A DNA stretch of 64,000 nucleotides from Escherichia phage NJ01. Made by a program: the position numbers and the translations under genes. Where the stretch lies: the sequence record NC_018835.1, one strand, 5' to 3'. The notes under the pieces are model-generated. The model saw only the letters and a program-made list of their open reading frames with translations, made no database searches and was not told the DNA's origin. This document shows, piece by piece, positions 56,387 through 63,220 of the stretch; positions within the stretch are counted from its first letter, which is position 1, and every line of letters begins with the position of its first letter.

Positions 56387-56632
56387 TTACATTGGAGTTA
56401 AGATGATCTCTGCTTTGGCAAACTTCTCACCAACTTCGAGAGTATCAGCAACAGGACGAGGTACACCAGTACCCAAACAAACAGCCCTTCGGTACCCACC
56501 AGATACAGTCATCATCAAATAAATGACCTGATTATCATCTTCTTTTAAAGTAAAAATATCAGCGATTGATAAGTCTTTAACAAAGAGTTTCTTTTCTTCT
56601 TTGTGACGAACCTTAATATTAATAATGCTCAT
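56387..56632 (-). CDS. small protein, early-region paralog family (divergent member)
   Basis: 81 aa; motif VKDLSIADIFTL...VIYLMM...AVCLGTGVP. Confidence 0.4.
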   Translation of the reverse strand: MSIINIKVRHKEEKKLFVKDLSIADIFTLKEDDNQVIYLMMTVSGGYRRAVCLGTGVPRPVADTLEVGEKFAKAEIILTPM

Positions 56633-56634
56633 AC

Positions 56635-56880
56635 CTACTCCTGAACCACTGACATGCGAATCATCTCGACCTGATCGTCAAGACCTTTAACAGATAGCAC
56701 ACCTGTGGAAAGGTTTACCACAGGAACCCAACCACTGGCTATACGGATGTTACCAGAAGCATTTTCAACCCTCATGTAATACTGAGGAGAGGCACTTCCT
56801 ATCTGAACTACGAAAGGGTTTCCGGGAATGATCGTTTCCAACCGTACCGTATTATCCTTTTTCTTTGGGATGATCTTCAT
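56635..56880 (-). CDS. small protein, early-region paralog family
   Basis: 81 aa; motif LETIIPGNPFVV...YYMRV...VVNLSTGVL. Confidence 0.4.
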   Translation of the reverse strand: MKIIPKKKDNTVRLETIIPGNPFVVQIGSASPQYYMRVENASGNIRIASGWVPVVNLSTGVLSVKGLDDQVEMIRMSVVQE

Positions 56881-57128
56881 TATGTGTTATCCACCAAAAG
56901 TTCTGCTGACACAGGAATAACTCGACACCAAATAGAAGGTGCTGTTACGTTACCATCGGATAGACGAAGGGTGATTGCTCGATCAGAGTTGATGGTGACA
57001 TTTGGGCTTTCAGATACAGATCCCTTAACATACAGGGTTGTATTATCAGGGAACCTAAACACGGTCCCGCTGGGAAGTGAGTTGAGATCAACCGTGGTCA
57101 CTTCTTCTTTCTTGTGAGTAATCTTCAT
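56880..57128 (-). CDS. small protein, early-region paralog family
   Basis: 82 aa; motif VDLNSLPSGTVFRF...LYVKG. Confidence 0.4.
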   Translation of the reverse strand: MKITHKKEEVTTVDLNSLPSGTVFRFPDNTTLYVKGSVSESPNVTINSDRAITLRLSDGNVTAPSIWCRVIPVSAELLVDNT

Positions 57129-57136
57129 CTTGATTC

Positions 57137-57448
57137 CTATTTAAGTTTGAGGCTAATGTTGAGGTGCATACATGCCCTGTTCTGTACAGCAGCATAGCTT
57201 CTACCGAGCATGTCAGCCATTCTCTGAATAGACATGAACCCAGCATTACGGATAAGGAACTGGTCTTCTTCTTTAGACCACTTAACTCGGATTGCAGCTC
57301 TTGATATACCAAACTTAGTGCAAGCTGTATTAACTGCATTCTCCGTTACATTCATAATCTGAGCAACCTCTTGAACAGAGTACTCTTTGATTAATCTCCG
57401 AAGATTTTCAATCTGCATCGGAGTCCATATAGTTCTTCGAGCTTTCAT
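57137..57448 (-). CDS. DNA-binding protein with two Myb/SANT-like HTH repeats; putative transcription regulator
   Basis: 103 aa; two W...E(D/E)..L repeats (WTPMQIENLRRLIKEY, WSKEEDQFLIRNAG) each followed by HTH-like helix. Confidence 0.5.
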   Translation of the reverse strand: MKARRTIWTPMQIENLRRLIKEYSVQEVAQIMNVTENAVNTACTKFGISRAAIRVKWSKEEDQFLIRNAGFMSIQRMADMLGRSYAAVQNRACMHLNISLKLK

Positions 57449-57739
57449 ACATCCTCCAATTAAACATTTATATAAGACTTGCTTAGATAAAGATTCAATA
57501 AAATAGGGGGAGGGGACGAATCCTCCCTTATCCTATTAATTAAGTTTGCATGTAAGATCTAACAATCGGTTGCCTTTGTAGGAATAAGCGTTATGCTCAT
57601 CCAGCACTAAACTCCCGCCCCCTTAGTGGGCTGGGTTATTAAAGGGTAACGCCCTTATGGGCTAGTTACATGAATGTTAGTTTGATAGGAGATCTGAAGT
57701 CCTATCTCAAAGGACTCTCGTAAGAATCCTTCACGATAG

Positions 57740-57931
57740 TCACCCTTTATAGGTGGTACAGATTAATGTTGCATGTCTTTGGTTATACAGTTCGAAGTAA
57801 CGAGGCTTGCTCCAGTCTCTGTCTCTGGTAAATGATTGAAGGATGAAGTGTCTGTCACATCCAAGCCACTCAGAAACATCCATCGCTAGACGTATAGGAG
57901 AACCTCTGAACTCTCTTCGCTCCATAGCCAC
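57740..57931 (-). CDS. hypothetical protein
   Basis: 63 aa ORF. Confidence 0.3.
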   Translation of the reverse strand: MAMERREFRGSPIRLAMDVSEWLGCDRHFILQSFTRDRDWSKPRYFELYNQRHATLICTTYKG

Positions 57932-58080
57932 CCCTTAATATTACTTATTCATCTCTCGTCGGCTATCTCTCCAAGCCAACCAAGTGTAGGTTTTCAGCTC
58001 TTCAAAATCTTCTGGAGAGAATAGGTATTCTTTGAAGGTATCACCAAACCATTTTAAAAACTCTTCAGTCATAAAACCTC

Positions 58081-58254
58081 TTAACAAGATTGATCACAAG
58101 GCTGATCTCCACATGTTTTACAGATCACTGGTGAATAACTACAGGCAGGATATACTGACACGCCATCAAACGTTTCACACCCACAGTCAGGGCATGTACC
58201 ATTGGATTCCATGTCATCGTCATCATATACTTCACCGCCACCATAACAGCTCAT
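58081..58254 (-). CDS. small Cys-rich protein (putative metal-binding)
   Basis: 57 aa, below track cutoff; 10 Cys incl. CPDCGC and CKTCG; SD GAGGAG. Confidence 0.4.
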   Translation of the reverse strand: MSCYGGGEVYDDDDMESNGTCPDCGCETFDGVSVYPACSYSPVICKTCGDQPCDQSC

Positions 58255-58263
58255 ATGAACTCC

Positions 58264-61225: not shown

Positions 61226-61425
61226 CAAAGAGTATGTATTTGCAGCTCTCGAAGTTTCATAGCCACATAAGAGTCAGAAGAAATGAGCCACTTATGAAAG
61301 ACTACCTTAGCACCAGTTCGAGAACAACCTAACTCTTGTGCAAGCTTACTGAACACGTCCCCGTCTTCTGCAAAGAAGAAAGGGGCACAACGACAGATCG
61401 CTTTTTGCTCTTTGTTAGTTACCAC
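61225..61425 (-). CDS. hypothetical protein
   Basis: 66 aa ORF. Confidence 0.35.
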   Translation of the reverse strand: MVTNKEQKAICRCAPFFFAEDGDVFSKLAQELGCSRTGAKVVFHKWLISSDSYVAMKLRELQIHTL

Positions 61426-61435
61426 GAAACATCCC

Positions 61436-61687
61436 TCATTGACTCACACCACGAATCAGATGATTCTGTAGCATTTCGTCTTCTGCATTATAAAGGAATG
61501 CGAACATTAGCTCCTTAGCCACATCTCTTGAACAGTTAAGACACTTAGAGATTTGAGTTAGTTGCATGTTGCGATCAGTGTGTTCCATCAAGGCAATGCG
61601 AATGATCTCTCGCATACCTATTACATGGGCTGTTTTAACCGGCATAGGTCCAATTACCTTGCTTATTACGGATGGCTGACATTGCAT
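61436..61687 (-). CDS. hypothetical protein (possible HTH); start uncertain
   Basis: 83 aa track ORF; an overlapping 47-aa ORF upstream suggests an internal start. Confidence 0.35.
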   Translation of the reverse strand: MQCQPSVISKVIGPMPVKTAHVIGMREIIRIALMEHTDRNMQLTQISKCLNCSRDVAKELMFAFLYNAEDEMLQNHLIRGVSQ

Positions 61688-62074
61688 GAACCCAGAAGCC
61701 TTCCAGTTTCAGAGCACCGTTAGCTACTGCATCCATACGTTCAGGGCGGTTCATACGTTTGGTTGATACTTTCATACCTATCTCTCTTTGTTAGTGGAGG
61801 CATTATTGCCAGTTGATACAGCGGATGACTCTTACAACAGAGTCATCTACTCTACAAACTGGTGAAGACTCCCTACCCCTAGGAAGTCTCCTGAATCCCA
61901 AACCGATACGTACCCCTACATATCAGAAAGTTTTTCGAAAATTGACAGGTTTTAGTCTAACACCGGATGTTCGAGCAAGCTCTCCCTAGCGGTGTGGCAT
62001 ATGCCTGAATTAATAAGTTAATGAGGAACACCCTCACATAGCCCTCTGATAAACACAAGGGCTATAAGTCGGTG

Positions 62075-62293
62075 TTACTTTTGAGATAAACACAGATCAG
62101 GACGTGGCATAACAGTTGTTGATAGACCAAAGACTTCAACATAACCACTGTTCAAGTTAGCAGCTTTACACAGACCATCAGGAGTTTTATCTTCTAGCAT
62201 CAGCCAGAAACGTCTATCGTAAGAGAAAACATCACCACCCTTAACGTCTTCTGCATTTGCATATTTAGGATAATCGACTACTTTAATTTCCAT
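62075..62293 (-). CDS. small protein, early-region paralog family
   Basis: 72 aa; motif VKGGDVFSY...FWLML...AANLNSGYV. Confidence 0.4.
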   Translation of the reverse strand: MEIKVVDYPKYANAEDVKGGDVFSYDRRFWLMLEDKTPDGLCKAANLNSGYVEVFGLSTTVMPRPDLCLSQK

Positions 62294-62303
62294 CTAATTG
62301 CCC

Positions 62304-62522
62304 TTATTGATAAATAGAAAGGTGGATGAGTTTATTCACATGAGCGAAGTTAGGTAGGATTTGCATCTCATTGTTGAAGATATTAAAACAACGAACCCCG
62401 CCCTCTACAGCATAAGCAGATTTCTGAAAGAGACTACCTCCCCACACAAATACATCATGTGTTTCAAGAGATCGTAACTGAACAGCCTCGTCAACAACCT
62501 TCTTTTCGATGTTCATGTTCAC
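62304..62522 (-). CDS. small protein, early-region paralog family (divergent)
   Basis: 72 aa; motif LRSLETHDVFVW...CFNIFNNEM. Confidence 0.4.
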   Translation of the reverse strand: MNMNIEKKVVDEAVQLRSLETHDVFVWGGSLFQKSAYAVEGGVRCFNIFNNEMQILPNFAHVNKLIHLSIYQ

Positions 62523-62770
62523 TTCCGATTAGTAACTACTGCATCATGGATAACTGAAACAGGTAAGTTTGAATCTAGCTTCATTACTTGATTGGTGCTT
62601 AAACTAAGCACTACACAACCATTCCGAAGATCAGTCTCTGACACATGTGGTGTATATAACTGAACGATCATGTAATAATCAATACATGTTGCCTTAACTT
62701 GGAACACATCGCCAAGTTTCAAATCACCCACACGCAATTCTTTAGCTTTCATCTCAAGATCAATCTTCAT
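62519..62770 (-). CDS. small protein, early-region paralog family
   Basis: 83 aa; motif LKLGDVFQV...YYMIVQ...VVLSLSTNQV. Confidence 0.4.
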   Translation of the reverse strand: MKIDLEMKAKELRVGDLKLGDVFQVKATCIDYYMIVQLYTPHVSETDLRNGCVVLSLSTNQVMKLDSNLPVSVIHDAVVTNRK

Positions 62771-62996
62771 CTTTAGCCTCTATGTTGGTTATGTGGAGAT
62801 CACTACGCACTTGGCAGACCTCATCCCGTTTAATAGGCATGAGCTTTCCAGTAATCACATCAACACAGTTCACATAATTTTCTGCGTATAGAGTGTCAGT
62901 TCTGATATAAAGGAACCCTTTAGATTCAAACAGAACCCCCGGCTTCATGTTGTTTAAGCGAAGCATGGTACGATCAGATTTAATATTGACTTTCAC
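62760..62996 (-). CDS. small protein, early-region paralog family
   Basis: 78 aa; motif MKPGVLFES...LYIRT...CVDVITGKL. Confidence 0.4.
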   Translation of the reverse strand: MKVNIKSDRTMLRLNNMKPGVLFESKGFLYIRTDTLYAENYVNCVDVITGKLMPIKRDEVCQVRSDLHITNIEAKDED

Positions 62997-62998
62997 TG

Positions 62999-63220
62999 TT
63001 AATCCACCTTATTGGTAAGTCGAGCGTTAACTTTCTTAACAACTTCATGAGTGAAACCACCATAAATCTCACCAGTTGAAAGGTTAATATATTTTCTCTG
63101 ATCTCCTGATTTGCTATAAGCACTTGAGGACATATAATAATTACTCGAGTTCAGAGGGAACTGGAACACATCACCTGATTCTAAATCCCCAAGAGTTAAA
63201 ACCTTTGGGGCGTTGTTCAT
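62999..63220 (-). CDS. small protein, early-region paralog family
   Basis: Internal ATG (TGATATG coupling); motif LGDLESGDVFQF...YYMSS...YINLSTGEI. Confidence 0.4.
   Translation of the reverse strand: MNNAPKVLTLGDLESGDVFQFPLNSSNYYMSSSAYSKSGDQRKYINLSTGEIYGGFTHEVVKKVNARLTNKVD

Follow-up and report, generated by a model that had tools for sequence, protein, structure and literature searches.

The 64,000-nucleotide stretch of Escherichia phage NJ01 analysed here (sequence record NC_018835.1, hereafter the window) carries genes on its minus strand from about 24.6 kb through to its end, and ten of these encode small proteins, 72-83 amino acids (aa) long, that belong to a single paralogous family (numbered 1 to 10 in Table 1). 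Five of the genes form a tandem array (62075-63232), three form a second array (56387-57128), and two stand alone (at 60394 and 58264). Junctions between family copies are tight or overlapping; paralogues 2 and 3 overlap by 11 nucleotides (nt), and the start codon of paralogue 9 overlaps the stop of paralogue 8 by one base. A first-pass annotation, made from the sequence alone, had described an expanded family of at least ten small early proteins with a shared series of motifs, and had suggested that its amplification reflects host-takeover or anti-defence functions. All ten of the open reading frames (ORFs) it listed exist on the minus strand, two of them with a corrected start. Shine-Dalgarno position and orthologue length place the start of paralogue 7 at 58485, behind a GAGGA sequence, rather than at the upstream ATG at 58554, which lacks one; on the same grounds the most likely start of paralogue 1, the last gene, is the GTG at 63232 (MIIDMNNAPK, 77 aa), which has AGGAG 9-13 nt upstream, rather than 63220, and the orthologue of paralogue 1 in phage 172-1 (97% identical) is also 77 aa long. 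A clear Shine-Dalgarno sequence precedes nine of the ten starts (that of paralogue 2 is AAGGTGGA), while the start of paralogue 9, at 56880, has a weaker GGTGGA 9-14 nt upstream.

By its sequence matches, the window is that of a phiEco32-like (Kuravirus) C3 podovirus of E. coli. A megablast search with a 7.6-kb region finds about 100 genomes of Escherichia and Shigella phages (75-78 kb), with 65-77% of the region aligned at 90-95% DNA identity. Protein matches of the region come from phages KBNP1711, 172-1, NJ01, SU10, and phiEco32, and the matching records are classified in the Gordonclarkvirinae, genus Kuravirus. An N4-like or G7C-like identity is ruled out, since the protein and DNA matches are to Kuraviruses (phiEco32, SU10, KBNP1711, 172-1); what N4 has in common with this phage is a single family homologue, gp21.

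Sequence profiles confirm that all ten ORFs are homologous. A leave-one-out test, in which a profile built from nine members is run against the complete six-frame set of window ORFs of 35 aa or more (482 in all), ranks the omitted member first in nine of ten cases (E from 2.6e-9 to 0.02). Paralogue 10, the 56387 ORF, is the weak case at E = 0.37. It is linked to the rest through cross-hits in the PHROGs collection, where paralogue 3 matches phrog_12612 (E = 0.003) and paralogue 10 matches phrog_8365 and phrog_10911 (both about 0.01), and through a profile-profile comparison of alignments, in which its ortholog group matches that of paralogue 1 with 69% probability (E = 4e-5). A broad hidden Markov model (HMM) of the family scores the ten at E = 7e-12 to 1e-20 and the next-best ORF at only 0.29, so the window has exactly ten members; in relatives whose sequence runs to the genome end, further members upstream were not found. 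Pairwise identity among the paralogues is just 12-30%. The alignments do contain the proposed motifs, in the order L..L..G(D)VF, an aromatic Y/W-hydrophobic pair, xVNLx(T/S)G, and V.P. Leave-one-out ranking, PHROG cross-hits, the broad HMM, and the profile-profile comparison agree on at least ten paralogues, as had been proposed, and the profile statistics place their similarity far beyond chance.

Table 1. The ten family genes of the window, followed by neighbouring features. HMM E, E-value with the broad family profile; Genomes, number of the twelve compared Kuraviruses that have the ortholog type; dN/dS, ratio of nonsynonymous to synonymous substitution rates.
Feature	Coordinates	Strand	Product	HMM E	PHROG	Genomes	Remarks
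Paralogue 1	62999..63232	-	77 aa (MIIDMNNAPKVLTLGDLESGDVFQF...)	2.5e-18	phrog_9955	5
Paralogue 2	62760..62996	-	78 aa	2.1e-17	phrog_16423	11	GTG start
Paralogue 3	62519..62770	-	83 aa	2.4e-14	phrog_9955	12
Paralogue 4	62304..62522	-	72 aa (GTG) or 70 aa (ATG at 62516)	5.5e-13	phrog_33163, cross-hit phrog_6570	6
Paralogue 5	62075..62293	-	72 aa	7.4e-17	phrog_6570	12
Paralogue 6	60394..60618	-	74 aa	3.7e-12	phrog_10911	5	solitary; dN/dS 0.07
Paralogue 7	58264..58485	-	73 aa	1.3e-20	phrog_6570 (residues 1-70)	12	solitary
Paralogue 8	56880..57128	-	82 aa	4.4e-13	phrog_7832	8
Paralogue 9	56635..56880	-	81 aa	2e-15	phrog_7431	12
Paralogue 10	56387..56632	-	81 aa	7.1e-12	phrog_12612 and cross-hits	12	most divergent member; present as diverged alleles
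tRNA-Arg	59231-59305	-					anticodon TCT
Helix-turn-helix protein	57137-57448	-	103 aa				PF08281, E 1.5e-7
Lipoprotein-family protein	58912-59217	-	101 aa				PF24052, E 7e-34
Paired-Cys ORFs (four)	58081-58254, 59642-59851, 59860-60033, 60615-60800	-	57-69 aa				putative zinc ribbons
Predicted membrane protein	55457-55924	-	155 aa
Presumed amidotransferase/ligase block	~47890-54701	-
Terminator-like hairpins (three)	61217-61192, 57527-57508, 56205-56180	-

The first-pass annotation had also suggested profile searches of protein libraries and structure prediction, and both extend the family well beyond this phage. A profile of the ten run against 1.84 billion representative proteins finds 785 representative clusters at E <= 1e-3, nearly all of them 66-90 aa long with the same motif series. 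The family pattern, seen in about 130 distant members, is roughly MKI...(v)xFxxLxxGDVFxxxxxxYMKxxxxxxxxNAVNLxTGExxxFxxxxxVxPVxAxLxI. Each paralogue matches its own PHROG at E = 4e-28 to 8e-55, essentially over its full length, and cross-hits others; nine families of unknown function that PHROGs keeps separate (phrog_6570, 7832, 7431, 16423, 9955, 12612, 8365, 10911, and 33163) are joined here as one superfamily. Three proteins of other phages match the family profile over their full length, namely N4 gp21 (E = 2.9e-17), LUZ24 gp7 (3e-10), and PaP3 ORF65 (4.4e-9), and their PHROG families have the same length, motif series, and predicted fold as the window paralogues. The phage of the window has ten members; scans of the first 22 kb of N4, of PaP3, of the 6-kb LUZ24 early region, and of three metagenomic phage contigs recovered a single one each. 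The family also occurs in rII-carrying phage contigs and in jumbo phages. The studied PaP3 early protein gp70.1 was considered as a member and rejected (in PaP3 only ORF65 belongs), and T7 has no member.

Curated resources have no place for this family. Scans of the ten ORFs and 112 family members against Pfam and NCBIfam gave nothing meaningful, and no catalytic family or motif; for KOW (PF00467 and relatives) the ten have no Pfam match and the 112 members gave one marginal hit, to EFP_N (E = 0.029). A sequence profile search of PDB had no match, nor did the ten match PADLOC-DB defence-system models at E <= 0.1. Curated anti-defence families likewise gave no match in the Pfam, NCBIfam, and PDB sequence searches, which cover several such families (Ocr, Ard, Acr, Tad, Gad, Acb, and others were considered). 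A homologue search with the 112-sequence alignment returned almost only Kuravirus proteins, and one with two repeats linked to SprT-like proteases (below) returned nothing. A tblastn search with a distant member and with the profile consensus found nothing outside Kuravirus among phages and nothing in plasmids, which for so insensitive a method is not evidence of absence.

The domain is not always a stand-alone protein, as some proteins contain 2-6 tandem copies. An SprT-like metalloprotease from a Tenacibaculum metagenome-assembled genome (MFV0249145.1; L020 1501-2937) ends in five tandem, very basic copies, which match the family profile (whole-protein E = 4e-13 in the 1.8-billion library, 4e-9 to 8e-8 per repeat) and have the family motifs L.(V/I)GS.F...Y...C..L. 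These Bacteroidota repeats differ from the phage proteins in being bacterial, very basic, and fused to an SprT-like metalloprotease (PF10263). A Crocinitomicaceae SprT-like protein (205 aa; L021 1462-2079) has a single-copy tail with a weak, partial match (E about 1e-4). Such tails hint, from sequence similarity, at a relationship between the phage family and a cellular targeting domain.

Structure prediction gives a consistent picture. The AlphaFold2 model of paralogue 1, built on the 112-sequence alignment, has five beta strands and a mean predicted local distance difference test score (pLDDT) of 91.3, and that of paralogue 10 is also a confident barrel (pLDDT 87.2). The predicted fold has the five antiparallel strands and small barrel, superposable on SH3, KOW, and Tudor domains, that define the SH3-like fold class, and on these models the family has a generic SH3-like barrel fold and lies outside every curated family. 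Foldseek searches of BFVD return uncharacterised phage proteins, about 75 aa long and from many groups, N4 gp21 and PaP3 ORF65 among them, and the two models retrieve many of the same viral models (ECBP2, 172-1, PaP3 ORF65, Pseudomonas tf, Hera, Cronus, MP2), a further link of paralogue 10 to the family. The SH3-like domains used for comparison were the ribosomal protein L2 C-terminal domain, the KOW domains of EF-P, Spt5, and NusG, the Tudor-like domains of CarD and UvrD that bind RNA polymerase, and FeoA. Sequence identity of the phage barrels to these is 2-19%, and no Pfam model of those families matches. Unlike them, the predicted phage barrels are stand-alone, mostly acidic, and equipped with an extra N-terminal strand (MKI...) paired with a C-terminal strand. 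The window paralogues have isoelectric points (pI) of 4.9-9.2 and net charges of -2.5 to +2.7; 102 distant members have a median pI of 5.0. The near-invariant or consensus positions (G, F, Y/W-M, N-L-x-G, V) are hydrophobic or glycine, as in a core and its turns.

The family is a variable repertoire among close relatives. We compared the window with the equivalent regions of eleven relatives, twelve Kuraviruses in all, with ortholog types defined at 45% identity or more. Each genome has 6-10 members (one count is a minimum, as that locus ended at its record's end), and these fall into 15 ortholog types, five of them present in all twelve genomes and the others in 1-11. Salmonella phage 7-11, of the sister lineage, has four clear members scattered in its early region, as against the single members of N4, PaP3, LUZ24, and the contigs, and expansion is therefore a feature of the phiEco32/7-11 lineage. 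Mean aa identity between relatives is 66-95% for family genes, compared with 92-99% for most of their non-family neighbours. Paralogue 3 alleles are deeply diverged across the twelve genomes (51-96% identity, median synonymous divergence dS of 1.2), and the paralogue 5 type is the best conserved (82-99% identity, dN/dS 0.09). Paralogue 7 is the member nearest the family consensus, and its type is duplicated in two of the twelve genomes.

Every ortholog group has a dN/dS of 0.07-0.26, similar to that of the neighbouring genes, so the copies are functional genes under purifying selection and not decaying duplicates; the same values reject gene-wide positive selection. High divergence of some types goes with a high dS (1.0-1.2 vs. 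0.2-0.3), an indication of recombinational exchange of old alleles and not of rapid adaptive change. Only two DNA repeats, both short (25-29 nt, 76-80% identity), link neighbouring copies, and leftover DNA similarity between paralogues 3 and 1 spans the GDVF motif (repeat D1). Because so little residual similarity remains, the duplications must be old, and a recent duplication is rejected. The amplification claimed in the first-pass annotation holds in so far as the repertoire is diversified and partly accessory in close relatives; what produced it is old duplication, gene gain and loss, and allele exchange, not a recent burst.

The claim that these are early genes rests on their homologues. 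In phage SU10, the assigned early class comprises coding sequences (CDS) 69-125, for which sigma-70 promoters lie upstream, between CDS 120 and 121 (PMC4281155). By synteny, the family members match SU10_096-098, 102, 107, and 111-114, and phi32_95-98, 104, 109, and 113-115. Passages in the papers on 7-11 and YF01 restate that the block is the experimentally determined early class of phiEco32 (PMC8948821, PMC9965538), and passages in all three papers treat the early block as the most diverse part of the genome, mostly of unknown function and presumed to serve host takeover (PMC4281155, PMC8948821, PMC9965538). On this literature, in which the homologous block of phiEco32, SU10, and YF01 is classed as early, the ten genes would be expressed early in this phage as well, and to that extent the earlier assignment to an early region stands. 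A consensus promoter scan within the region found no enrichment (17 found, 23.5 expected). Family members are absent from the 34-protein SU10 virion proteome.

Several neighbouring features deserve description (Table 1). The helix-turn-helix protein has two such units matching sigma-70 region 4 and goes by the name "D5-like transcriptional regulator" in annotations of relatives (phi32_99); its gene is immediately upstream of the array of three family genes and is adjoined by a gap of about 290 nt with the terminator-like hairpin at 57527-57508. Among the neighbours, only this protein and the one matching the "Phage lipoprotein family" of Pfam could be assigned to a family. Four small ORFs interspersed with the family have paired cysteine motifs (e.g. 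CPDCGC...CKTCGD, CC...CCVCG) that suggest zinc ribbons; the single one tried against Pfam had no match. The tRNA-Arg gene in the middle of the early small-ORF block is conserved in relatives, and in phage Ptacy1532 an HNH endonuclease gene is inserted beside it. The predicted membrane protein has homologues in three of the eleven relatives, at about 65% identity between flanks that are 94-99% identical, and its gene, judged from this sequence comparison, is another variable cassette of the early region. The three GC-rich hairpins followed by T runs on the coding strand lie between early sub-blocks and may split the early region into several transcription units, with the qualification that the count of such hairpins is barely over the shuffled expectation (8 vs. 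4.9). Genes presumed, from ORF size and synteny with the phi32_83-88 annotation, to encode a glutamine amidotransferase, an amidoligase, and a COOH-NH2 ligase form a further block. The annotations of PaP3/LUZ24-like Pseudomonas phages and of Salmonella phage 7-11 place such a block beside strings of small early ORFs too, so this early-region layout is common to these distant phages.

What might ten such proteins do? The explanation we put forward, and to which we give roughly even credence, is that they are a functional paralogous family of SH3-like barrels, of old expansion, that act early in infection as non-enzymatic binders of host macromolecules. Old tandem duplications would have expanded the family to 4-10 copies per genome in the phiEco32/7-11 lineage, leaving a present repertoire of five core types and at least ten flexible ones, which come and go and whose alleles are swapped by recombination. 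Host sigma-70 promoters would drive early expression of the genes, and each barrel would serve in the cytoplasm as a binding module, its core conserved and its surface variable, that engages one-to-one with a particular host macromolecule, most likely a protein, so as to block or redirect it. Targets or target variants would differ between paralogues. Rather than shutting the host down in general, the proteins would modulate it without killing, for instance by neutralising defence or stress factors. A binding module is suggested by a stand-alone barrel without a catalytic motif whose hydrophobic and glycine core positions are kept while variation falls elsewhere, by the recurrence of the domain in tandem repeats and appended to a protease, and by the probable early expression, the absence from the virion, and the partly dispensable, recombining nature of the repertoire. 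The host-takeover or anti-defence role first proposed is a plausible candidate.

Among the closest known systems are small, non-enzymatic early proteins that bind a host protein one-to-one, such as LUZ24 Mip/gp4, T7 gp0.4, gp2, gp5.5, and gp5.9, and phiEco32 gp79 (PMC4635203, PMC8948821). Those host modulators of LUZ24, T7, and phiEco32 also sit in strings of tiny ORFs downstream of host-type promoters. The likeness does not extend to homology, as LUZ24 gp4 is a different protein of 46 aa and T7 has no family member. The known modulators are moreover single genes, several of them toxic on expression, whereas the window family has ten copies and LUZ24 gp7 is not reported to be inhibitory. When 13 early proteins were expressed in P. 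aeruginosa PAO1, each from a single copy, LUZ24 gp7, the only experimentally examined family member we found, was among them; only gp4, gp6, gp9, and gp11 impaired growth (PMC4635203). The absence of gp7 from the inhibitors argues against a general shutoff toxin and is compatible with an anti-defence role.

Several points weigh against early binders of host targets. No family member has a demonstrated partner or phenotype. Gene-wide dN/dS lacks the positive selection that an arms-race factor might show, and the five universal, well-conserved types fit a core phage function as well as they fit counter-defence. Early timing comes from homologues in other phages, and the early promoters of its relatives lie outside the window. 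An SH3-like barrel is generic, and its best structural neighbours here are mostly domains that bind nucleic acid or RNA polymerase; the second AlphaFold2 model, moreover, was built on a family-based alignment, which makes its agreement with the first only partly independent.

Those structural neighbours favour a rival in which the barrels bind nucleic acid, as do KOW, Sm, Sso7d, and integrase C-terminal domains, and act on phage or host RNA or DNA, for example by modulating transcription, translation, or replication. We consider this rather unlikely, as the family is mostly acidic (window members span the pI range given above), no KOW or other nucleic-acid-binding Pfam model matches, the near-invariant positions are hydrophobic or glycine and not basic, and one generic ligand hardly explains ten divergent copies. 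The pI values by themselves make a general DNA-binding role through positive charge unlikely. The barrels could instead work inside the phage programme, each as a small adaptor or chaperone to proteins of phage replication, transcription, or assembly. Universal presence of five types, purifying selection, and the retention of the family in phages as different as N4, LUZ24/PaP3, the rII-carrying contigs, and the jumbo phages all suit such a role. It is improbable all the same, given that no member is in the SU10 virion proteome, that the genes sit in an early block of small accessory genes and not among replication or morphogenesis genes, that half of the types are dispensable among close relatives, and that phages whose core machinery is similar have anywhere from 1 to 10 copies.

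A sub-case of counter-defence would make each paralogue an antitoxin-like neutraliser of one host toxin from a toxin-antitoxin or abortive-infection system, as VapX is for VapD. This is quite improbable. VapX (Haemophilus VapXD, PDB 6zn8) has no sequence relationship to the family, there is no VapD-like neighbour, and the context is one of phage early genes. It is scarcely credible, finally, that the copies are mostly functionless leftovers of duplication, or that their motifs are a chance resemblance of unrelated small ORFs. The low identity between paralogues and the failure of paralogue 10 in the leave-one-out test might suggest as much, but profile statistics, 785 homologous clusters in the protein library, and a confident common predicted fold refute it, as do the low dN/dS in every ortholog group, the ribosome-binding sites, and the five types found in all genomes.

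Early binding of host macromolecules by the barrels admits a bolder form. Gordonclarkvirinae are reported to be remarkably resistant to restriction-modification; of the defence systems tested, only Fun/Z was effective against them, and they have no known inhibitor genes (PMC11990801). A scaffold shared across phages, with a surface that varies, would amount to a library of binders, in which each Kuravirus paralogue neutralises a different host immunity or stress protein and the repertoire (15 types in 12 genomes) is the basis of this broad resistance. We regard this as distinctly unlikely. Were it true, the barrels would constitute a new and very large anti-defence superfamily of at least 785 clusters, including N4 gp21 and LUZ24 gp7.

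The ORFs themselves were already in databases as hypothetical proteins, spread across several PHROGs. What is new is that these PHROGs are one superfamily of predicted SH3-like barrels, with at least 785 clusters, and that each phiEco32-like phage has 6-10 copies, in part core and in part flexible. The family is new, but its kind, the multi-copy small early accessory proteins of phages, is known, and no new kind of system is involved. The searchable literature yielded no paper on N4 gp21 and none on paralogy among phiEco32-like early genes.

About one-twelfth of the genes of this 77-kb phage belong to one family that has no name in curated databases and is not discussed as a family in searchable papers, and its domain recurs in unrelated phages, the models N4 and LUZ24 among them, in hundreds of sequence clusters. 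The joined superfamily provides a candidate set for the presumed host-takeover functions of phiEco32-like early genes, and for the unexplained failure of restriction and other defence systems to stop Gordonclarkvirinae. The division into core and flexible types indicates which copies to delete first, and the hypothesis is directly testable, as this phage group is in the BASEL collection and plates on E. coli K-12 with restored O16 O-antigen. If the proteins are ordinary housekeeping adaptors, the family would still be a useful annotation for many thousands of phage ORFs; great importance would follow only if its copies turn out to form a set of defence inhibitors.

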